From: Azolla caroliniana | Taxonomy: Eukaryota > Plantae > Polypodiophyta | Length of the DNA: 12,054 bases | Reading direction: 5' to 3' | Assembly (NCBI GenBank): GCA_043228905.1 | Contig: JBHGNT010001104.1 | Location: forward strand, 1 to 12,054 | Notes under the pieces: generated by a model | The model's database searches: none | The model's input: only the letters and a program-made list of their open reading frames with translations | What the model was told of the DNA's origin: nothing | In this document: piece after piece, positions 1-12,054 of the stretch | Numbering within the stretch: position 1 is the stretch's first letter | How the letters are laid out: each line of letters begins with the position of its first letter | Program-made: the position numbers and the translations under genes

Positions 1-254
1 AGAGAGATTAGTGAAGTGTTTAGTTAGAGAACACTAATCTCTCTTCCTTGTTGGTGCTAGACCTCTTACCAAAGAGGGTTAATAACATATTCATTATTCT
101 TATTGTCTACATTCGTTACCCTATTGTCTATGAGAGCGAGCTTGAGAGAGTGAATCGTTAAGTAAGTCTGAGGTTCAAAGGTGTCTGACAACCATCTCCG
201 CCCGATTTGCCATCAAAAGGGTATATGCCGGTCCGAACTCCACGAACGACATCG

Positions 255-620
255 AGGACTTAACTCCATCAATACATAGATCCTACACAATCATCTATAT
301 TCCTCGCAGGATTACACGAGCATCTTCTTACAATGTTAGCCTTAACCGACTTCTCACAATAAACAATTGAGCAGGTGGTCGCCCGCGTCCTCGTTGTGGA
401 TACAGCTTAGCATAATACCTCTTTCTCTATGGGATTCCTCCAAAGTACCTTCCCGACACATTAAGAAACCCAATTTCGGCCAGCAATCCAATGCACGACA
501 TGCTCTAACTCCGGCTATTTGGCCGTGGAGTGTGCTCTTTGACCACACTGCCTGATCTACCACTCCCGCACACACACGGTAGAGTAGTGTGAATATAATA
601 TGCTCATCGCACAACCACCT
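255..620 (+). pseudogene. gag: Degenerate LTR-retrotransposon Gag C-terminal fragment with double CCHC zinc knuckle
   Basis: Manual translation of codons starting at positions divisible by 3 gives ...LHQYI..SIFLAGLHEHLLTMLALTDFSQ*TIEQVVARVLVVD...IQCTTCSNSGYLAVECAL*PHCLIYHSRTHTVE*CEYNML. This contains two CX2CX4HX4C knuckles (492-533, 549-590), each broken by single transitions (CAT>TAT, TGC>TAC, CGA>TGA, CAG>TAG). Not in the ORF track. Confidence 0.8.
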
Positions 621-719
621 CTCTAGTATGCAAAATTGAGCCCTACCACGATTGTCCTCAATAGGATGATCGCGATCATCCGCCACCAAGAAATCAGGTT
701 CCCCATTTTTGGTAATTTC

Positions 720-750
<31 letters not shown>
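720..750. repeat. (CT)n microsatellite
   Basis: About 15 CT units with one interruption, read directly. Confidence 0.95.
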
Positions 751-1066
751 ACTTTAGGGGTTTCATTTTTGTTGTGTTGAGTGTCAGATATTTTCCCTTC
801 TTTCCGGCTTATTTGTACGAGATGTGAGAATATGTGAGTGTGCACACGTGTTTCCTCGCTCTCATCCAGTTGCCTCCGTTGTGTATTGGGTGAAGTTCCG
901 GCCTATTGGCCGGTATATTGGCCGGTGTCGTCGGAACCAGTAAGCTCGGTCTTCCCTCCTCCATCTCTCTCTGGTGCAAGATCCCGGTGGTCCCGCACTA
1001 GATCGTACACGCGTTGATTTCCACGACATCTTTAGTGAACCCGACGTGAAAGGGCAGCAAGGGAGG

Positions 1067-1790
1067 ATGGAGTTGGAAGATGAAGACTTCACAGAGATAA
1101 TGACAAAAGTAGTCATAGAGTTCAGATGAGTGACAATGAAATGAGAAGCGGCACAACACGCTGTCGAGAGCATGGTCGATAGAGTTGACCGTTTTAATAG
1201 GGACAAAGTCCCATTCTTCTTGGAAGCCTACAACACGGAAATGGCAGTGCGAAACGTAGATGAGACATTGAGGCTAGAGTTTTTTGTCGAGTGGTAGCCA
1301 TCCGGATGCACTCGCAAGTAAAGGAGCTCCATGAAGCTCATAGTTCATGGGAGGCCTTCGAAGCTGCACTCTTGAAAGACTTCGACCAGTGGATAGTGTC
1401 GGCGAAGGGTTTCCTGGAGTTTAAGCAGCGCTTTGATAGGCTCCTGGTGCACGAACAAAGACTGGTGAGCGGGGGCAAAACCCGACGGTACCATTGGCAA
1501 GGGTGTGGAGCAAGTCACCCTCTCCACTTGTGGAGAAAGACCGATTGAGGATAAACTCGGAATCGGACAGGTGACGATCGCGAGTTCGGAAAAGGACCAA
1601 TAGTTTCGTGCATAACTAGTGGCCGAAACTTTAGAGAAGGAGAAGCAAGCAGATTCAAGGCTTGCATGATCGAAGAAGAGGAGATAACTACTAGTCGTGA
1701 TATCGAGGAGTTAGTGGCGATGGACGAGTTGTCAGCGGACAAAGTTACGGAATTGTTCCACACATGGGTCCCGAAGACTCTAACACTTGA
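1067..1790 (+). pseudogene. gag: Degenerate Ty3/gypsy-like Gag N-terminal (capsid-like) fragment
   Basis: ATG at 1067 gives MELEDEDFTEIMTKVVIEFR*VTMK*EAAQHAVESMVDRVDRFNRDKVPFFLEAYNTEMAVRNVDETLRLEFF. A frameshift in the T-run near 1280-1285 leads into CRVVAIRMHSQVKELHEAHSSWEAFEAALLK (track ORF 1291-1548). The F-x4-V-x2-FL-x2-Y and 'SWEAFEAALL' patterns are typical of retrotransposon Gag. An acidic remnant continues to about 1790. Confidence 0.65.
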
Positions 1791-1809
1791 AGCGCGTAAA
1801 ATTAACAAT

Positions 1810-2022
1810 TGTTAACACCCGTAAAATTAACAATTGAAGCGTAGAACGGAAAGTACAGAGACTACTTTTGTTAATCAATTTCATCGATTCCAGACCCTTT
1901 TATAGGCATCCGGTAAGAATTACAAAATGGTGCCTACTGGCTATCGGCTATCAATTAGTATGGATCCAGATCGGTTCTGTCATGATAACACTCACATTAT
2001 GCATAGAAAGGATCATGACAAT
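1810..2022 (-). mobile_element. LTR-like fragment, interrupted by the next element
   Basis: Starts TGTTAACACCCG (LTR-terminus-like) and contains CCTTTTATAGG, a reverse-strand TATA context common in plant LTRs. A 17-bp direct repeat lies at the junction (1795-1811 and 1820-1836). Confidence 0.35.
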
Positions 2023-2748
2023 TGATAGGAATACACGCTCCCGACGAACAGCGCTCGGCCACAACCGAGCCTAGAATCAAAATACAGTAAACGGGTAATG
2101 AACGCACGACATAATGAAGAGAAGAGAACATAGGATGTTAACGTGGAAAACCCCAAACTAGGGGAAAAAACCACGACAACCCACAGACTGCAAACTATCA
2201 CTACATCAGAATGTACAATAGTGAAGCACCGAGGCAACGACCTCGAGCTTGCTATCTTCGCCACAGGGGCGGTTACAACAGAGATACGAACTCTTCGTCT
2301 CTTTCTCTCTCACTCTCTCTCTGTACACTGTTGTGCTCTCTAATCTTGCACCAACAAGAATAATAACAACAAACTAATGTTTGCCCTAAGTCATATTTAT
2401 ACTAATATGACTTTTCGGCTGTTTACAAATGTAGCCCCGATGGACTCTCAGAAACATATTTACGAATATGTCCCTTCATCCGGTGAGCACTCGTCACGAG
2501 GTCTGCATCATCCGGTGCTTGCCTGGCACACGTCATCCAGTTCTCACCGGTTCTTCCGTTGTCGGGTGCTCCACATCTGGTTCTCACCGGGTCTTCACCA
2601 TCCGGCTCTTGCCGGGTACTCATCATCCGATTCTCACCGGGTCTTTTGTAGCCGGGTACTCGTCATCCGGTTTCGGCCGAGGCCGATAGGGTTTTTAGTA
2701 CTTGTGGGCCGTATGGCCTAAGCAAGGAGTGCGAGCGTATAACCTTCA
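2023..2748 (-). mobile_element. Probable solo LTR (~726 bp)
   Basis: TGA...TCA ends (TGATAGG / CCTTCA) with flanking 5-mers ACAAT and ACGGT, a degenerate TSD differing by two transitions. It has the typical plant U5 motif CGTGGAAAACCCC..GGGGAAAAAACCAC (~2141-2175), a reverse TATAAATA at 2394-2401 inside a 10-bp inverted repeat, and U3-like tandem repeats. Confidence 0.55.
2477..2672. repeat. Degenerate tandem repeats (CATCCGGTTCTCACCGGGTCTT core) in the putative LTR U3
   Basis: CATCCG/CATCCA/CATCTG recurs about 7 times and TTCTCACCGG 3 times. Confidence 0.8.
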
Positions 2749-2828
2749 ACGGTTGGATAGTTAGGGTAAATAGTATGGTACCTAAAGAATAGTATAAGGG
2801 TAAAAGCATGCGAGTGGAAACACTATTA

Positions 2829-2881
2829 TAGCTAATTAGCTACTAAAATGGCCATAGCTAATTAGCTATTTGTTTAGCTAG
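2829..2881. repeat. Subterminal copies of the TAGCTAATTAGCTA palindrome
   Basis: Two full copies (2829-2842, 2855-2868) plus a partial TTAGCTAG. Confidence 0.85.
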
Positions 2882-3048
2882 TCTTTCTTGTGGGAAAATC
2901 AAATATTTGAAAAACTAATTTATGAAAAAACTCAAATATTTGAACTTCTGTTTCAGACGTAGTGGAACTTGGGGAATATCACCATCATCTAAGGTCGACT
3001 TCAATGTCATCAATTTCCTGTTTAGCCTAAGTCTGATTTTGAACGCAG

Positions 3049-3305
3049 ATGGAGTACTCAGAGCACGAACGCAGACGTAGCTCCCGCAACAGCAAAAAAT
3101 CGACATTGCAGATTGAGAGCTACAACACAGAACCCGCTCGATCATCGTCCAGGTATGTTTCAGTTACAGAAACCCCAAACATTTGTTTTTTCTTTTTGAC
3201 TACTGTCTGAACTTTGGTGCCGATTCATATTTCCCCAAAATCGAATAGGGCGAAGTCCTTGGAGTCCCATACAAGGATGTCTCGCAAATCGGGGAGTAGC
3301 AACAG
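3049..3305 (+). CDS. Putative 5' exons of the RING cargo gene (exons ~3026/3049-3152 and 3249-3305)
   Basis: Donor CAG|GTATGT at 3153, acceptor ATAG| at 3248, donor CAG|GTGTGT at 3306. The frame from the ATG at 3049 (MEYSEHERRRSSRN...) is phase 2 and needs the alternative donor at 3308 to join the next exon. A phase-1 frame from acceptor 3025 joins directly. The start codon is unresolved. Confidence 0.4.
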
Positions 3306-3347
3306 GTGTGTTTATATTACTTTTTTTGTGTTTAATCCTGTCTTTAG

Positions 3348-3755
3348 TGATTAGGGTTTGTGATTGAAATTTCTGATTAGGGTTTGTGATTGAAATTTCT
3401 GATTAGGGTTTTTGATTATAAATTTCTGATTAGAATTTCTGAATAGGGTTTCTGGTTACAAATTTTGATTACAAATTAGAATTTCTGAATAGGGTTTTTG
3501 TTTATAAATTTCTGCTTAGGATTTCTGATTAGGGTTTGTGATTGAAATTTTTTATTAGGGTTTCTGATTGAAATTTCTGATTAGGGTTTTTGATTATAAA
3601 TTTCTGATTAGAATTTCTGAATAAGGTTTCTGGTTACAAACTTCTGATTACAGATTTTGATTAGGGTTTCTGATTTCAAACTTCTGATTACAGATTTTGA
3701 TTAGGGTTTCTGATTTCAAATTTCTGAATACAAATTATGATTAGGGTTTCTGATT
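3348..3755. repeat. Intronic minisatellite built on telo-box TTAGGGTTT (units like GATTAGGGTTTCTGATTGAAATTTCT)
   Basis: About 11 TAGGGTTT copies separated by AAATTTCTGATT-type spacers, lying inside predicted intron 3306-3861 (GT...TTTCAG). Confidence 0.9.
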
Positions 3756-3861
3756 TGCTAAGTTAAAGATTTTGCACCATTTTTGTTGTTGTTGATTGGG
3801 GTTTTTGATTCTCACATATTCTGATTTTGCACTATTTCTGATTTCTGAAATGATATTTCAG

Positions 3862-6662
3862 ATGGCTCGTTCCTCCAGCGTAAAATAGAACTGCAAATAG
3901 AGATCCAGGTTCTTTCAATGAACCTGGACCTTCTAGGTGTAAATACTGTTGCAGATTACAATTTGGATAAGCTTCAAGTAAGTTAACGATTCCTGAGCAA
4001 AGTTGGTGTATCTTTCAACAACAAGAATAATTAATCGGTAAATTTCTCTGTTGCGTTGAAGGAACAATACATTCATCAAGAACAGGTAGTTAGCTGCCTT
4101 AAGAAGAAGCTACATTTTGTGGAGGGGATGGTAAGGACCAGACAGGATTTGGACCTGAACATTCTTGCTCCCTTACCAAATGAAGTAGAACCAGAAAATG
4201 ATTTATTGACAGTTCAAGCACGTTGCATCGCTTGTGGGTTAGGTGTGGAGGACAAAACTGCGTCTTTGTTGGTTCACCTACAACCATGCAACCACACATA
4301 CCATCTGCTTTGTTTTCAACATGCCTGTCGAATTGCTGCATTCTGTTTGGGAGATTGCAGTACAACTCTACCAAATGAGTGGAGAAAACAAACAGGTATA
4401 CCATACTGTAGCTAATAAGCTTAGTCTTTTCTAATTAGCTATCCTACTAGCTAATTAGCTACTGGCAGCTAATGAGCTACTAGCTAATTAGCTATGCTAG
4501 TAGCTAATTAGCTATGGTACTAGCTAATTAGCTAGTACCATAGTTGTGTAAAAAAGCTAAATAGCTATCCTACTAGCTAATTAGCCACTGGCAACTAATT
4601 AGCTATCCTAGTAACTAATTAGCTACTGCCATAGTTGTGTAAAGTAGCTAATAAGCTATCCTAGTAGCTAGTTAGCTATGGTACTAGCTAATTAGCTAGT
4701 ACCATAGTTGTGTAAAAAAGCTAATTAGCTATCCTACTAGCTAATTAGCTATCATAGTAGCTAATTAGCTACTGACATAGTTGTGTAAAGTAGCTAATAA
4801 GCTATCATAGTAGCTAGTTAGCTATGGTACTAGCTAATTAGCTAGTACCATAGTTGTGTAAAAAAGCTAATTAGCTATCCTACTAGCTAATTAGCTACTG
4901 GCAACTAATTAGCTATCCTACTAGCTAATTAGCTATCCTACTAGCTAATTAGCTATCATAGTAGCTAATTAGCTACTGACATAGTTGTGTAAAGTAGCTA
5001 ATAAGCTATCCTAGTAGCTAATTAGCTACTGGCAGCTAATTAGCTATCCTAGTAGCTAATTAGCTACTGGCAGCTAATTAGCTGTCCTAGTAGCTAATAA
5101 GCTATCCTAGCTACTACATAGTTGAGAAAGTAGCTAATTAGCTTTCATTGTAGCTAATTAGCTATCCTAGCTACCACCATAGTTAGTAAAGTAGCTAATT
5201 CGCTATCCTAGCTACTACCATAGTTAGTAAAGTAGTTAATTAGCTATCCTAGCTACTACCATAGTTGAGTAAAGTAGCTAATTAGCTACCATAGTAGCTA
5301 ATTAGCTATCCTAGCTACTACTATAGTTGTGTAAAGTAGCTAATAAGCTATCCTACTAGCTAATTAGCTATCCTAGTAGGTAATTAGCTATGGTACTAGC
5401 TAATTAGCTAGTACTATAGTTGTGTAAAAAAGCTAATTAGGTATCCTACTAGCTAATTAGCCACTGGCAACTAATTAGCTATCCTAGTAACTAATTAGCT
5501 ACTGCCATAGTTGTGTAAAGTAGCTAATAAGCTATCCTAGTAGCTAATTAGCTACTAGCAGCTAATTAGCTATCCTACTAGCTAATTAGCTACTACCATA
5601 GTTGAGTAAAGTACCTAGCTATCCTACTAGCTAATTAGCTACTGGAAACTAATTAGCTATCCTAGTAGCTAATTAGCTATCCTACTAGCTAATTAGCTGC
5701 TGGCAACTAATTAGCTATCCTACTAGCGAATTAGCTATCCTAGCGAATTAGCTATCCTAGTAGCTACTGCCATAGTTGTGTAAAGTAGCTAATAAGCTAT
5801 CCTAGTAGCTAATTAGCTACTGGCAGCTAATTAGCTATCCTAGTAGCTAATTAGCTACTGGCAACTAATTAGCTGTCCTAGTAGCTAATTAGCTACTGGC
5901 AGCTAATTAGCTGTCCTAGTAGCTAATAAGCTATCCTAACTACTACCATAGTTGAGTAAAGTACCTAATTAGCTATCCTAACTACTACCATAGTTGAGTA
6001 AAGTACCTAATTAGCTATCATACTAGCTAATTAGCTATCGTACTAGCTAATTAGCTATCCTAGCTTCTACCATAGTTTAGTAAAGTAGCTAATTAGCTAT
6101 CCTAAATAACTGTCATGTTATTGTAGAATCTTGTGGATTAAGGATGGCACATGATGTGTCTGGTGCTGATGATGCTGCAACAGATGAGGATACTACTGCC
6201 AATGTGGCTGAAAGTAAGAGTCCTGCTATCACATCTCCTTCAGATCAGCTGCACCCTATTCTTTTGGAACAGTGTACTGAATTAGGCAACGATGTGAAAT
6301 GCCATGAAATAGTGGAAACAACATGTAAAACTGAGGTTCACAACAACAGTGTTTATGAACACTTGATGCAACATTTCTTCGAGTCTCAAGACCTTGATTC
6401 CACCCCACCGAGCCCAACTACTGAAAATGTCCAAACAGATCCCTCTGTACTTGAAAAGCTAGTTCAAGAAACGGCTGATGTGCAATTAGCTGCTGAGGCG
6501 ATGGGAAGGTTGTCGGAGGAGGACACACTTGCGCATTGGGTCCTAGAAGCAAGGCTAAATGGGGAACCAACCAGAAAAAGGCTGAAGAAGGGGCCACGAT
6601 CGGGAACAAGACCAGTTACTCGGTCAAGGGGCCCAGACGTAGTGGAGCGAAATACTGTTTAG
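3862..6662 (+). CDS. Spliced coiled-coil + RING-H2 zinc-finger protein with acidic tail and basic C-terminus (exons 3862-3977, 4062-4395, 6127-6662); putative E3 ligase
   Basis: Intron 3978-4061 (GTAAGT...GAAG, phase 0) and intron 4396-6126 (CAG|GTATAC...TTGTAG|, phase 1) join an unlisted exon (DGSFLQRKIELQ...DKLQ) to track ORFs 4056-4415 and 6144-6662 in frame. RING-H2 pattern C-x2-C-x17-C-x-H-x2-H-x2-C-x10-C-x3-C at 4224-4358. NLS-like PTRKRLKK near the end. Confidence 0.72.
4409..6101. repeat. 1.7-kb palindromic minisatellite (~20-bp TAGCTAATTAGCTATCCTAS units with higher-order CATAGTTGTGTAAAG modules)
   Basis: Read directly. It lies entirely within predicted intron 4396-6126. Confidence 0.97.
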
Positions 6663-6832
6663 TTGGATATGATTGTTAGCTTAGGGATTTTGCTAGGGTT
6701 TTATGAAGTTTTACTATCCTATTGGACAAGTAAAACCTCAGATTGGTTGTTGCTTGATCCACATTATGTAATGGAACTCTATGATGTTTTTCCAAGATAA
6801 TTTGAAGAGTGTTGTTCTATGACTGAAACTCT

Positions 6833-7933
6833 TTGATGTTCAGGATATTGTTTTGTGAGACTAGTAGTTACTTTGTGAGTGTGAATATGTTGGTGTTTTC
6901 TGATGTTGCAGAGTCTAAAGGGTTTGATTCTATTGCTCGTAAGGCCAATGGCAGTGTGGATACTGTTGATGTTGCGGCATGTTTAAAGGGCCCCATCTTG
7001 AAAGTAGATGTAGCAACTGACACAAGTGATCTGGTCACACAAGTTGATCAAGCATGTAGCACGGATGACTTGGTGTTGCAGGTAGATGCAGCATGTAGCA
7101 CGGATGACTTGGTGTTGCAGGTAGATGCAGCATGTAGCACGGATGACTTGGTGTTGCAGGTAGATGCATCATGTGATACCAGTGGACTGATATCGAGCAG
7201 AACAGTAGCTACATGCACTGAGGTAATCCAAGGATTGATAACTAAGTTGACAAAACAAGAGCACCAGAATGTGAAGCTAGGCCCAACACAGTCGACTAGG
7301 GGTTTAAAGAGGAAAAGGACACCAGTTGTGTCAGCCGAACCTGAGCTGATTGAGATTGATCGTATCCTACCAGAAAATGGTGTAACAGCGGCTCAGTTTC
7401 AGGAATGGAAACCTAAACCACTAGAAGTCGAGCGAAGAGCCTTGATCTTGGAGCTGGATAAAGTCTTGATGAGTGTGAGATATATGCAACCAAGGAGGGA
7501 CGCAAATCAGTTTCTAGAGTGGGCTGTGGAGTACTTCGATGTGTGGAAGTGTTTGGCAAGATTCTTCCCAAAATGGCGAAGTCGTTTTAAAGGTCAATGG
7601 GCACGAGAAAATTGTGAGCAGATGGAAGCTGCAAGATTCAAGAGGCTTTCTGATTTTTGGGCTACTTGGCCTGAATATAATGCTGACAATACATTGATTT
7701 TGGATACAGAACATTTCCGACACTACTTCAATATTCGGAGATGCTGTCTCATTCTACCCGAGGAAATGCCTGAACAGTACCTGGTGCAAACAGTGAGCTG
7801 CCAACTAGGTGCATGGTTGTGGACTCCATACCGAGCTCAATATGCGGATAATATATGTAGACTCGTTCCACTGACTAGCAAGAGCTTAGTTGTTTATAGG
7901 AGATTTGTAGACATTTCCAATGGTAATTTATAA
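6833..7933 (+). CDS. Repeat-containing protein with C-terminal FCP1/SCP (NIF)-like HAD domain, catalytic motifs altered; true exon start probably 6912
   Basis: 366-aa open frame. The HAD/NIF motif order is LILELDKVL (cf. LVLDLDETL), PRRDANQFLEWAVEYFDVW, WARENC, FKRLSDFW..YNADNTLILDT. Acceptor TTTTCTGATGTTGCAG| at 6911, NLS-like LKRKR, and 13-aa repeats. Confidence 0.68.
   Translation: MMFRILFCETSSYFVSVNMLVFSDVAESKGFDSIARKANGSVDTVDVAACLKGPILKVDVATDTSDLVTQVDQACSTDDLVLQVDAACSTDDLVLQVDAACSTDDLVLQVDASCDTSGLISSRTVATCTEVIQGLITKLTKQEHQNVKLGPTQSTRGLKRKRTPVVSAEPELIEIDRILPENGVTAAQFQEWKPKPLEVERRALILELDKVLMSVRYMQPRRDANQFLEWAVEYFDVWKCLARFFPKWRSRFKGQWARENCEQMEAARFKRLSDFWATWPEYNADNTLILDTEHFRHYFNIRRCCLILPEEMPEQYLVQTVSCQLGAWLWTPYRAQYADNICRLVPLTSKSLVVYRRFVDISNGNL
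7051..7167 (+). repeat. Three exact 39-bp in-frame repeats (ACSTDDLVLQVDA)
   Basis: AGCATGTAGCACGGATGACTTGGTGTTGCAGGTAGATGC at 7051, 7090 and 7129. Confidence 0.97.
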
Positions 7934-8064
7934 ATATGTAAAGAGATGACATTATTCAATGAAGAATTTAATTACTTGTTCCCACTGTACTTATCTACTG
8001 TGTAATTTGAGGAATATGTTGCAGATTGTTGATTTCATTCTATTGATGACTATTTAGCTATTGA

Positions 8065-8143
8065 CAGCTAATTAGCTGCATTTGTACAGCGAATTAGCTG
8101 CATTTGTACAACTAATTAGCTGCATTTGTACAGCTAATTAGCT
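8065..8143. repeat. 22-bp tandem repeat CAGCTAATTAGCTGCATTTGTA x3.5
   Basis: Units start at 8065, 8087, 8109 and (partial) 8131, between the convergent 3' ends. Confidence 0.92.
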
Positions 8144-8592
8144 ACTGATGACTATTTCGCTATAACTTATAACTTAAAACTTAACAAAAAAGACATGATT
8201 TTATTGAGAAAGAAGCACAGAAAGCAGACTGTATACAAGAAATTGATTCCAAACGAATTTATTGATCTGTTTTCGCGAAATACATGTTTGTTTTACAAGA
8301 GAACATGGTAAGTGCTACTTGTAGCTACAAATTCCATGGCATACTATTGTAAATACATTTGTACAGCTAATTAGCTACTGATGACTATTTCGCTATAACT
8401 TATAACTTAAAACTTAACAAAAAAGACATGATTTTATTGAGAAAGAAGCACAGAAAGCAGACTGTATACAAGAAATTGATTCCAAACGAATTTATTGATC
8501 TGTTTTCGCGAAATACATGTTTGTTTTACAAGAGAACATGGTAAGTGTTACTTGTAGCTACAAATTCCATGGCATACTATTGTAAATACATT
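8123..8592. repeat. 233-bp tandem duplication covering the transposase stop codon and 3' UTR
   Basis: 8123-8359 matches 8356-8592. I found one mismatch (C8315/T8548) and a CATT microhomology at the junction. Confidence 0.93.
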
Positions 8593-11500
8593 CATACACA
8601 TTAGCACCAACAGTGTATAAACCGGAGCAGCTATTGTATTCTGACATTGGGACGTTGATGCATCTGACCAAATGAGAGTACATATACGCCGCTGGTTTGT
8701 CTTCTAACAGCCTGTACACATATTCGTAGTCATCTAGTTTTGCATAAAAAATGCCTTCGATGTAGAATGTCCCGGTAGATACAAAATTTCCCCATGCATC
8801 TACAATATTCTGCCTTGCACACTGTTTACTAACCGTGCACTTTAATATATAGAAATCAGCACCCTCTGAATTGCCTTCTTCAGCATTTACAGCGAAGTTA
8901 TCCCCAACGTTCAGGACATCACTCAAAGTATCTCCAAGTCCCTCATATGTGAAGTCAGCATTCTGCCCTGTTTCTCCATCAACTGCTTCCTTATCATTCA
9001 GAGTGTGATACTCCCAATTCTGAATGTATGCTTTGTTTAGACAATATCTCCAATTTCCCTGCACACAATGGAAGCAAAAACAAGTCAATTCTCTAACCGC
9101 AATACAATGACCATCCAACCTGGAATAACCGCGAACAACATGCAGAGATCGCAATTCGGGAATTCCTTGGCACTCCCAGGTCTTCTCCCTATTTACTTCA
9201 TCTATCTTCACTTCCCAAAATTCACGTTTGATATCTCGGACTTGCGAGGAATAAACACCTGTGGCACTCGTTGACATATTTGTTCTTAAAAATTCAACTA
9301 CATGTGATGCACAATTCATGTGCACACCATCTGTCTTTAGTTGTTCATGGGTAAGTGCCCGCTTTATAACAGCCCCTGCACCATCATGTTCACCTTTACC
9401 ATGGCCAGACCCAAAAATATTCCATCTCATCTCCAAACCTGTTATAGCAGGATACCTCCCCACAAAATAAAATGGACGTCGAGCCTTGAATTGTGACGCA
9501 GCTCCGTCAGACCAGACCCAATGTTGAGTAAGCTCCAAACGTTGAGCTAATAACCACTGCCAATGTAACTTAAAACAGTGTTGGACGAACAAGGTATCAT
9601 GCTTCTTATCATCGGAAATAAAGAAATGAATTACTTTTTTAACATCACCTGAAACTCGAAAATATGTTATGTGCACAAAAATGGTTACCTGAACTGAACA
9701 CCAATGCATAGATTGAATTTCATTCTGCTGCTTGAAAGTATAATTCTCTGCGAAATCTACTACTGAGACTACTACATCATTTGGGAAATCAGATATGCAA
9801 GTCTTAAACTGATGGGCCTGCCATGAATAAATGAAGTTGTGTTTAATGAACTTTCCTAGAGATACTACAAACAGAGACACCAAATCCCTTGGTTTAAGCA
9901 TCTTCCGAACTAGATCCTTTCTTTTACACACCTTTCCTTCGAAATTGGTGTTCACTGACTCAAATAACTTCACAGAGATCAATATTTCACTACTCAATTC
10001 ATTTGGACACCACCTAAATCTAGTAGGGCCACAATCTTGACATAAACCCATGACACATTTATGAATATGGAAGATAGCGTCAGATTCTCTCGGACACAAT
10101 ATTGAATCTAATAAATAACTCATGGAAGAGATAACGTGCTCAGATGATTTACACTCCTCTTGCGGGCTTGATCGACAGATTGGGCACCCACATGTGCAAA
10201 CTGTATTAGTTAGGGATGCGCTATGGTGACGTAGTAGATTAACAGAGTCCTTCAGAAAACCCATCTGTACATGGTAAATGCAACAACATGTGTATCGATC
10301 CTTTAAGTGTCTCACAAAGTGTGGCTTAAGAGACTCGAATGTTCGTAGTTGAACTTTGATAGTTGGATGCATTCGTTTGAACCTAATAAATAAATCGACC
10401 TGCGTAATAAAGGGGAATTAGTTATTCTCGTAACTAGCTAACTATCCTAGTAGCTAATTAGCTATTCTAGTAGCTAGTTAGCTATTCTAGTAGCTAGTTA
10501 GCTATTCTAGTAGCTAATTAGCTATCATGGTAGCTAATTAGTTGTCCTAGTAGCTAGTTAGCTATCATGGTAGTTAATTAGCTGTCGTAGTAGCTAATTA
10601 GCTATCATGGTAGCTAATTAGCTATTCTAGTAGCTAATTAGCTATCATGGTAGCTAATTAGCTGTCGTAGTAGCTAATTAGCTATCATGGTAGCTAATTA
10701 GTTGTCCTAGTAGCTAATTGGTTGTCCTAGTAGCTAATTAGCTATCATGGTAGCTAATTAGCTGTCCTAGTAGCTAATTAGTTGTCCTAGTAGCTAATTA
10801 GCTATCATGGTGGCTAATTAGCTTGTCTAGTAGCTAATTAGCTATCATGGTGGCTAATTAGCTTTCCTAGTAACTAATTAGCTATCATGGTAGCTAATTA
10901 GATGGTCTAGTAGCTAATTAGCTATCGTGGTAGCTAATTAGCTGGTCTAGTAGCTAATTAGCTATAATGGTGGTTGATTAGCTTTCCTAGTAACTAATTA
11001 GATATCATGGTAGCTAATTAGCTGGTATAGTAGCTAATTAGCTATCATGGTAGCTAATTAGCTATCACGGTGGCTAATTAGCTGTCCTAGTAACTAATTA
11101 GCTATCATGGTAGCTAATTAGCTGGTCTAGTAGCTAATTAGCTATAATGGTGGCTAATTAGCTATCCTAACTAATTAGCTATCATGGTAGTAGCTATTGA
11201 GAGTAGCCAGTTACCTATGTAGTAGCTATCATAGTAGCTAATTAGCTATCATGGTAGCTAATTAGCTATCATGGTAGCTAATTAGCTTTCCTAGTAGCTA
11301 ATTAGCTGGTAATAACGAAATAGCTAACTAGCTACCATGATAGCTAACTAGCTAGCAGTACAGCTAATTATCTGGTAGTACCTAAATTAGCTATTGAGAA
11401 TAGGTAATTAGCTATCATGGTAGTAACTATTGAGAGTAGCTAGTTACCTATGTAGTAGCGATCCTAGTAGCTAACTGAGGTAAATGTAACTGATAAGCTA

Positions 11501-12052
11501 ATTAGCTTTTCTGCTAACTGAGCTAATTAACTTTCCGAGTAGAGTCAAAACAAATGTTGAGATAAATGTAAATACCTGAGGTACATCAAGAAGATGAATG
11601 GGATGCTCCTCGTATTGATTTCTTCCAACACGTTTCCTGCATAAATCCTTTTTATTGGGTGAAACCCTACTCTCATTAGTCCAAAACATTGTGATTACAT
11701 CCTTGATTTCAAATGTTATGGGTGTCATTGGCTTACATCTTGTAGTTAGCTTTAGTAGACTAGTTCCTTCACCCGAGGAAATTATACGGTTCATTGTATT
11801 GTACACTGTTTTTCTACTAACACCAATTACCTTAGATAGCTCACTGATGTTTATATCGTCAACATCACTATTAAGTAACATCATTAGACTAGACCTTTTT
11901 AAGACAAGATCATCTTCTGACCTGCTCATGGATACGAAACTATTACGAAGATTATTTACTAAAATAGATGATATGTTTGCATTAAGACCATCACAATCAA
12001 CTAAGTCCTTTATCGATGGATCATTACATATTCCATAAAGTACTACCTTCTT
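8558..12052 (-). CDS. Sola-like (Sola2-type motifs) DDD transposase, spliced (exons >12052-11576 and 10399-8558), 5' end beyond the window
   Basis: A phase-0 intron at 11575-10400 (CAG|GTATTT...TTACGCAG|) joins ...HPIHLLDVPQ to VDLFIRFKRMHPTIKV... The upstream frame is open to the window edge, giving at least 772 aa. HTH-like ISELSKVIGVSRKTVYNTM; Cys/His clusters (CCCIYH, CVMGLCQDC, CFCFHC); catalytic triad VDFAENY (D 9755-9757), WSDGAASQFK (D 9506-9508), HGKGEHDGAG (D 9383-9385). Confidence 0.85.
10432..11528. repeat. 1.1-kb palindromic minisatellite (20-bp units alternating TAGCTAATTAGCTATCATGG / TAGCTAATTAGCTGTCCTAG)
   Basis: Read directly. It lies within the transposase intron 10400-11575. 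Confidence 0.97.
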
Positions 12053-12054
12053 TT

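Follow-up and report, generated by a model that had tools for sequence, protein, structure and literature searches.

The 12,054-bp stretch of Azolla caroliniana DNA considered here (contig JBHGNT010001104.1 of assembly GCA_043228905.1, positions 1–12,054 of the forward strand; hereafter the window) contains most of a dispersed, multi-copy DNA transposon of the Sola2 subgroup. Its anatomy is, in our judgment, very probably the following: a spliced transposase with a triad of aspartates (DDD) faces what is likely a single spliced accessory unit, which combines a RING-H2-like domain with an apparently inactive NIF domain of the type found in phosphatases of the RNA polymerase II (Pol II) C-terminal domain (CTD). 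The explanation that we favor for the whole, an element whose accessory unit acts in trans against host silencing, is about evenly balanced against its rivals.

The window was compared with 80 metagenome loci surrounding related transposases, which carry L numbers, and with homologous proteins, which carry P numbers; contigs from public sequencing runs (X6, X8, X18, and X20) were aligned to it. At 85% transposase identity, the 80 loci and the window form 41 families. Named relatives of the transposase come from a moss, a liverwort, and conifers, and also from Adiantum at 66–69% over short stretches; those of the cargo are proteins of the ferns Ceratopteris and Adiantum. Scans of viral contig and genome contig collections found nothing. 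The available text of the Azolla and Salvinia genome paper reports many SOLA repeats in Azolla and does not describe them (PMC6786969).

Results

The transposase is of the Sola2 type

The transposase bears the Sola2 motifs DF(A/S)ENY, SDG.A.Q(F/Y)K, and HGK..(C/H)DG.G..(V/I)KR, together with an upstream C-C-x2-H-Q stretch, and these match the published Sola2 alignment (supplement S10 of PMC3627910) column for column, as judged by eye. Three aspartates, D215, D298, and D339 (window positions 9757, 9508, and 9385), are invariant in 48 of 48 aligned sequences. In the predicted structure, which has a predicted local distance difference test score (pLDDT) of 83.5, residues 190–391 match integrase and mariner cores with a Z of about 10; the best Foldseek match, NurA, was uninformative. 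Pfam has no Sola profile, according to the accessible part of the source (PMC5751038). Judged by its motifs and by the structural model, the element belongs to Sola2, which bears out the Sola-type assignment made in an earlier note on this DNA.

That note had also described the DDD transposase as uninterrupted. The triad holds, but the frame is interrupted by a GT-AG intron (11575–10400), and the joined exons give 773 codons with a single terminal stop. L001–L003, L006, and L007 have an intron at the same position; a conifer-like clade lacks it. Exon 1 contains a helix-turn-helix (HTH) that matches Pfam HTH_11 at E 4.5e-5, under the cut-off. The transposase start lies about 270 nt past the window end in L001, which is 97% identical over exon 1. 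Comparison with L001 shows the transposase to be under selection, with nonsynonymous and synonymous divergences (dN and dS) of 0.018 and 0.095 for exon 2 and of 0.018 and 0.025 for exon 1. At its C terminus, residues 486–604 (~8590–8945) match eight BAH-domain structures, and no structure of another kind, among the 50 matches listed, with Z of 5.9–6.7, and this tail is conserved in most relatives. It is possible that the tail makes the Sola2 transposase a chromatin reader. An atlas search with the tail returned DUF7869 at 0.82 or less, a lead only.

Element end and multi-copy state

The earlier note had placed the left end at 2812; it most likely lies at 2798. A contig from run X6 fits the window from exactly 2798, and the 232 letters that precede this point in the contig are unrelated. 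Depth in three DNA runs is 280–3000 at 2732–2795 and mostly tens of thousands from 2860 on, with the upward step in the bin 2796–2827. A motif matching bases 2798–2810 lies upstream of the transposase in L002, L003, L006, and L074/75; the window was in view when this pattern was drawn. An end model built from seven transposase-side ends alone scores the window end at 7.5 bits, versus 6.5 for the best shuffled sequence, and gives 18 bits to an accessory-side end in L011, just outside the L011 accessory gene. The same 13-bp motif is found at accessory-side ends (window 2798 and L011) and at transposase-side ends (L002, L003, L006, L074, and others), and its flanks in relatives are AT-rich, as in the window. 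The 5' end of Sola2 elements begins G-R-G; the motif starts with GGG at 2798 and in relatives, and the ends of the Sola2-Fanzor1 elements DFa start with GAG. The sequence GAGTGG was considered as the terminus and rejected, being common in flanks, and the conserved motif starts 14 nt earlier. The length of the element is likely about 10 kb. Additional end motifs occur off the expected place at L070 5211 (−), a strong hit in an unexpected orientation, and at L050 1628 (+); nested or non-autonomous copies may account for them.

In run X8, contigs with 0–1 differences from the window have a depth of 3251–4554 over 2891–3015, 3116–3250, 6603–6751, and 7840–8077, regions that span the left part of the element to the 3' end of the NIF frame, and the divergent contigs listed have a depth of 11–106, about 100-fold lower. 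These depths come from run contigs and express a multi-copy contrast, not a copy number. The X6 contig, which carries a different flank at 2798, likewise fits a dispersed family. The case that the earlier note had set against its own reading, cargo consisting of single-copy host genes, is excluded because of this contrast across the element.

RING, acidic, and NIF frames facing the transposase

The RING-H2-like frame (4035–4395) and the NIF-like frame (6912–7933) both lie on the plus strand and face the transposase. The earlier note had called them two open cargo frames; frames, strand, and orientation stand, but in place of separate genes they are likely exons of one unit, with a third, acidic exon (6127–6662) between them. 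The RING variant has the form C-x2-C-x17-C-x-H-x2-H-x2-C-x10-C-x3-C at 4224–4358. All eight ligands are present, the last pair as C-x3-C, but the domain does not reach the Pfam cut-off (for zf-RING_2, E is 0.027 in the window; L077 gives 2e-4 and is likewise under it).

The fern protein P0244 (Adiantum nelumboides) contains an N-terminal domain, a coiled coil, the same RING variant, and NIF in one chain. The RING exon is 31% identical to it over 113 aa (E 4e-10), and residues 306–444 of P0244 align by tblastn with window 3882–4379 (E 4e-6). Homology to all eight fetched RING homologues ends at 4395 or earlier, and four of these read on through a canonical donor. The acidic exon opens at a phase-1 acceptor (6127), as does the NIF exon (6912), and the same holds in L005, where a similar acidic exon precedes NIF. 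Three joined frames are open, RING-acidic, RING-NIF, and RING-6127..6213-NIF, and a fourth splice model is not. Listed indels within the acidic exon preserve the frame, and those just after it do not. From these sequence features, the three frames probably make up a single spliced accessory unit that can end in different 3' exons: RING would be joined to the acidic exon or directly to NIF, or to the two in succession.

The N-terminal domain of P0244 (residues 75–170) has no name and occurs in moss-like families (L011 7484–7825, L012 8388–8723, and L070 18725–18934 (−)); it was not found in the window. An atlas search with this domain returned Transposase_32 in 10% of a cluster at 0.85, a weak lead. 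We do not claim a link of this domain or of the transposase tail to plant mobile domains (PMC7156037, as far as its available text goes), the atlas leads being too weak. At L049 3658–4917 (+), a canonical RING gene directly follows the transposase and shares its strand, in contrast to the convergent variant.

The catalytic motif of the NIF/FCP1-SCP phosphatases is DxDx(T/V). Because motif I reads ELDKV in the window's family instead (DLNG in L005 and L006), the NIF domain is, on its sequence, likely catalytically inactive, and the pseudophosphatase of the earlier note is supported. The Pfam NIF cut-off (PF03031) is passed by P0121–P0124, which are 70–99% identical to the window, and by L005 and L006. 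The window copy itself gives no Pfam hit at E≤1. It is without 11 residues at ~7538–7544 that none of the 29 fetched proteins covering this site lacks, and it is probably damaged. The only solved structure matched by the cargo NIF domain is UBLCP1 (PDB 3shq, E 7e-5); the AlphaFold model of the window NIF has a pLDDT of 37.

Variant statistics draw on 40 of 213 variant rows, 31 of which fall in accessory exons. Among the rows listed, 8 of 9 NIF-domain variants are synonymous, versus 24% expected (p 7e-5), which shows the domain to be under selection; the fractions are 4 of 10 in the NIF exon before the domain and 5 of 12 in the acidic exon. A 39-bp coding repeat at 6998–7174 differs in copy number among relatives, as reported for VANC variable regions. 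P0283 and P0286 of Hibiscus syriacus are fusions of NIF with Ulp1 protease and HMG-box domains. Since Ulp1 is often carried by transposons, NIF may ride on flowering-plant elements too.

A probably old RING gene and a clade-limited NIF

Co-occurrence was counted only for the 14 families with at least 3.5 kb of downstream flank. At E≤0.01, 9 of the 14 carry the RING variant or the N-terminal domain; leaving aside the family of the window itself, the count is 8 of 13. Some loci in this count had seeded the profiles; first-round RING seeds were the window, P0195, P0244, and L011 only, and first-round hits were L013, L077–79, L073, L074–76, and L047, with E from 2e-14 to 7e-3. Every hit lies downstream of the transposase on the opposite strand, and none lies upstream (176 kb of upstream versus 214 kb of downstream flank searched, redundant loci included). 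Location and orientation hold even in families with transposase identity as low as 33–46%.

Occurrences of NIF are limited to the family of the window, L005, and L006, which belong to one clade of 11 rows with a support of 100 in a quick tree. In L005 and L006, at about 49–50% transposase identity, it is likewise convergent with the transposase. The association of cargo and transposase proposed in the earlier note is therefore upheld for the RING or N-terminal domain, but NIF is confined to one clade and missing there in L003. Five pairs of transposase and NIF cluster members lie on equally long contigs, which is consistent with co-divergence; this evidence is circumstantial (15 members listed per large cluster), and one of the five shared lengths (8892) also fits an unrelated locus.

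By these sequence comparisons, the RING gene is likely an old feature of many distant families and NIF a clade-limited addition. The multi-gene Sola lineage of the earlier note is real in that the cargo is multi-copy and recurs beside the transposase, but because the RING gene recurs in many distant families, the lineage is wider than was supposed. The accessory gene is likely an old helper gene.

Family-specific motif arrays

A palindrome with the core GCTAATTAGC occurs 73 times in the window, versus 0.03 expected, and never left of 2831, in agreement with the earlier note, which had called it element-specific and absent from the left flank. None of the 73 cores lies in coding parts, and the two largest arrays fill predicted introns (4396–6126 and 10400–11575). 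L002, L003, L005, L006, L007, and L008 each have a distinct motif of their own massed in the same transposase intron, and most of them repeat the motif array behind the transposase; cross-occurrence between families is almost nil. The motifs of the seven families, the window's included, are almost never in coding sequence. Each motif was picked from its own locus, so that only placement is a test. Placement shows that family-specific motif arrays are kept out of coding sequence. Coordinates are collected in Table 1.

Table 1. Features of the window (strand as in the window; a dot marks features given without strand)
Feature	Position	Strand	Basis
Candidate target-site duplication (TSD), AT-rich 4 bp ATAA	2794..2797	+	Adjoins end; second copy beyond window
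Element terminus, 13-bp motif like a terminal inverted repeat (TIR), beginning GGG	2798..2810	+	Motif in relatives, contig break, depth step
Two subterminal copies of palindrome TAGCTAATTAGCTA	2829..2868	.	Palindrome scan
Candidate short 5' exons, strong donors at 3153 and 3306	3002..3305	+	Rough donor scan; inference only
13/26/40-bp minisatellite in T-rich intron-like stretch	3322..3770	.	Repeat scan
Predicted coiled-coil-like exon before RING	3862..3977	+	tblastn, splice sites
RING exon ending in phase-1 donor	4062..4395	+	Profile and homologue comparison
Predicted intron with about 40 palindrome core copies	4396..6126	+	Splice sites, palindrome scan
Acidic exon with basic tail, ending in stop; phase-1 acceptor, internal phase-1 donors 6214 and 6325	6127..6662	+	Frames, splice scan
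NIF exon: phase-1 acceptor, three 13-aa repeats, NIF/HAD (FCP1-SCP-UBLCP1 family) domain ~7433–7860	6912..7933	+	Profile, homologues
Convergent 3' region with three palindrome cores	7934..8557	.	Palindrome scan
Transposase exon 2: Cys-rich region, RNase H-like core, BAH-like C-terminal domain	8558..10399	−	Alignment, model, dN/dS
Transposase intron filled with palindrome array, 20/40-bp period	10400..11575	−	GT-AG, shared position in relatives
Transposase exon 1, cut by window end, HTH ~11771–11887	11576..12054	−	Pfam HTH_11

Discussion

The earlier note had started from the view that Sola elements are generally described as encoding only a transposase. That view falls with the Sola2-Fanzor1 elements DFa-1/2/3 and PPa-1/4/5, which carry a second gene (Bao and Jurka 2013, PMC3627910, in its accessible part). 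In those elements, as here, a Sola2 transposase is accompanied by a second gene, there inside short TIRs, but that gene is TnpB-like and the elements are from amoebae, whereas the plant RING/NIF unit has a fixed place across many families. With the Sola2 subgroup of Repbase, the window element shares the transposase motifs, the short G-starting end, and the AT-rich 4-bp flank; it differs in the convergent RING(+NIF) unit, the family-specific intron arrays, and the BAH-like C-terminal domain. A Sola2 element with a second gene is thus already known, and the RING/NIF module was not found described: in the literature on Sola elements, Repbase Reports and Bao et al. 2009 being outside its scope, we found no description of the RING/NIF module, the intron arrays, or the BAH-like tail.

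A further parallel is with VANDAL elements. According to the available text of Hosaka et al. 2017 (PMC5735166), the targets of VANC are family-specific motifs in tandem repeats of introns and noncoding parts. As in VANDAL, an accessory gene lies beside the transposase and family-specific tandem motifs lie in noncoding sequence; the superfamily is different, and the accessory unit is RING plus NIF. An anti-silencing role is plausible because of this analogy, and, given the anatomy, we put its chances at roughly even. The accessory unit would then act in trans, such that copies of its own family stay expressed and mobile despite host silencing. The arrays would be docking sites, most likely for transposase dimers bound through the N-terminal HTH, because the site is palindromic and the accessory unit in the window has no DNA-binding domain. 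RING could serve as a ubiquitin ligase whose substrate comes from the host or from the element, and the inactive NIF fold could grip a phospho-substrate or act as a decoy. What the unit targets at the element might be host silencing or the control of Pol II.

A bolder version of this proposal invokes BAH-PHD-CPL2 of Arabidopsis, which, as described in the accessible part of a preprint (bioRxiv 10.1101/2020.10.15.341198), is a host repressor with PHD fingers and an active phosphatase. The likeness, a lead only, lies in the kinds of part involved: a fold resembling BAH, a zinc finger, and a domain of the CTD-phosphatase family. In the Sola2 element, the zinc finger resembles RING-H2, the catalytic motif of the phosphatase domain is disrupted, and the similarity to BAH is weak. 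More generally, the cargo NIF domain shares its fold family with the UBLCP1, FCP1, and SCP phosphatases, with the catalytic motif altered. Land-plant Sola2 elements could, on the bolder version, possess an old anti-silencing module in which a BAH-bearing transposase docks on the arrays and brings the RING ligase, and in the fern-like clade the dead CTD-phosphatase domain would mimic and block host BAH-PHD-CPL2. We consider this version improbable.

Several observations weigh against the favored explanation. No VANC domain was found: at E≤1, the three accessory frames matched neither DUF1985 nor DUF287 in Pfam. Similarity of the tail to BAH is weak, with Z of 5.9–6.7 and Pfam BAH hits in 0 of 48 alignment members. 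The RING domain lies below the Pfam cut-offs, and ligands are missing from several fetched copies. Five of 13 long-flank families (L054, L066, L050, and two from the conifer-like clade) lack an accessory hit at E≤0.01; L050 has a weak one at E 0.019. L003, inside the NIF clade, has a convergent acidic exon but no NIF before the transposase, so that NIF is dispensable. No single element among the 80 loci has both ends clear with a matching TSD, and the right end of the window element lies outside the window; a blind TIR/TSD scan of the 80 loci gave low-complexity pairs only, and the flanks of one weak end pair (L075) did not match as a TSD. Lastly, P0244 is an automatic annotation, and the gene model is tentative: no RNA contig lies over any predicted splice joint (runs X18 and X20, guessed to be RNA, gave a few exon-side pieces, which count neither for nor against), and no good phase-1 donor is present toward the end of the acidic exon.

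The same two-gene anatomy could be read with the accessory protein as a cofactor or brake of transposition, for instance a RING ligase setting transposase turnover or a helper resembling MURB, and with the arrays as subterminal-type transposase sites or by-products of slippage. We regard this as possible, if appreciably less likely than the anti-silencing reading. It would account for an accessory gene fixed beside the transposase across deep splits and for an HTH that sits on the transposase, with no DNA-binding domain in the window accessory unit, and a recent preprint reports, in its available text, that a transposase alone can activate cognate copies (bioRxiv 10.64898/2026.08.24.746577). 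It fits less well with arrays that lie mostly deep in introns, far from the ends, like VANC targets; with a NIF family that includes Pol II CTD phosphatases, which points to host machinery; and with the apparent absence of the gene from some families.

Less credible still is that RING and NIF are two separate cargo genes, NIF being a later capture with its own transcript. The acidic exon does stop before the NIF exon in the window and in L005, and NIF is restricted to its clade and missing in L003; yet the phase-1 acceptor of NIF is conserved in L005, only ~250 nt of T-rich spacer precede the NIF exon, the RING phase-1 donor joins that exon in frame, and P0244 is annotated with both domains in one chain. 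That the cargo is passively captured host sequence without a role, or consists of flanking host genes, is very improbable and largely refuted already: the deletion in the window NIF, the degenerate RING copies, and the low synonymous share in the acidic exon would suit it, but depth is uniform with the element, NIF-domain variants are mostly synonymous (8 of 9 among the rows listed), place and strand are constant down to 33–46% transposase identity with no upstream hit, and both the window and L011 have their end motif outside the cargo.

Detailed knowledge of transposon anti-silencing factors comes chiefly from VANC and TnpA of Arabidopsis. An accessory gene that keeps a fixed place across Sola2 families as far apart as 33–50% transposase identity, next to arrays that turn over from one family to the next, offers an independent test of the repeated origin of such systems, with different parts, a ubiquitin-ligase fold and a pseudophosphatase. 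Mosses, liverworts, and ferns offer models in which the proposal can be tested. Genes annotated in ferns as having an "FCP1 homology domain" may also prove, in some cases, to be transposon cargo and not host genes.

Surrounding sequence

The left flank (1000–2797) has the look of a decayed retrotransposon, with a broken frame at ~1170–1550 that we take to resemble gag and that has no Pfam hit, and contains a very deep repeat at 2380–2700; the element looks to sit inside another repeat. At the opposite side of the accessory unit, a near-exact 233-bp tandem duplication at 8123–8588 reaches the transposase stop and is either copy-specific or an assembly artefact. Neighbors that seem to lie outside the elements at other loci include a reverse transcriptase like that of long interspersed nuclear elements (L003 1–1795), B3-domain genes (L075 14360–16224), and a GMC oxidoreductase fragment (L066 3994–5098).

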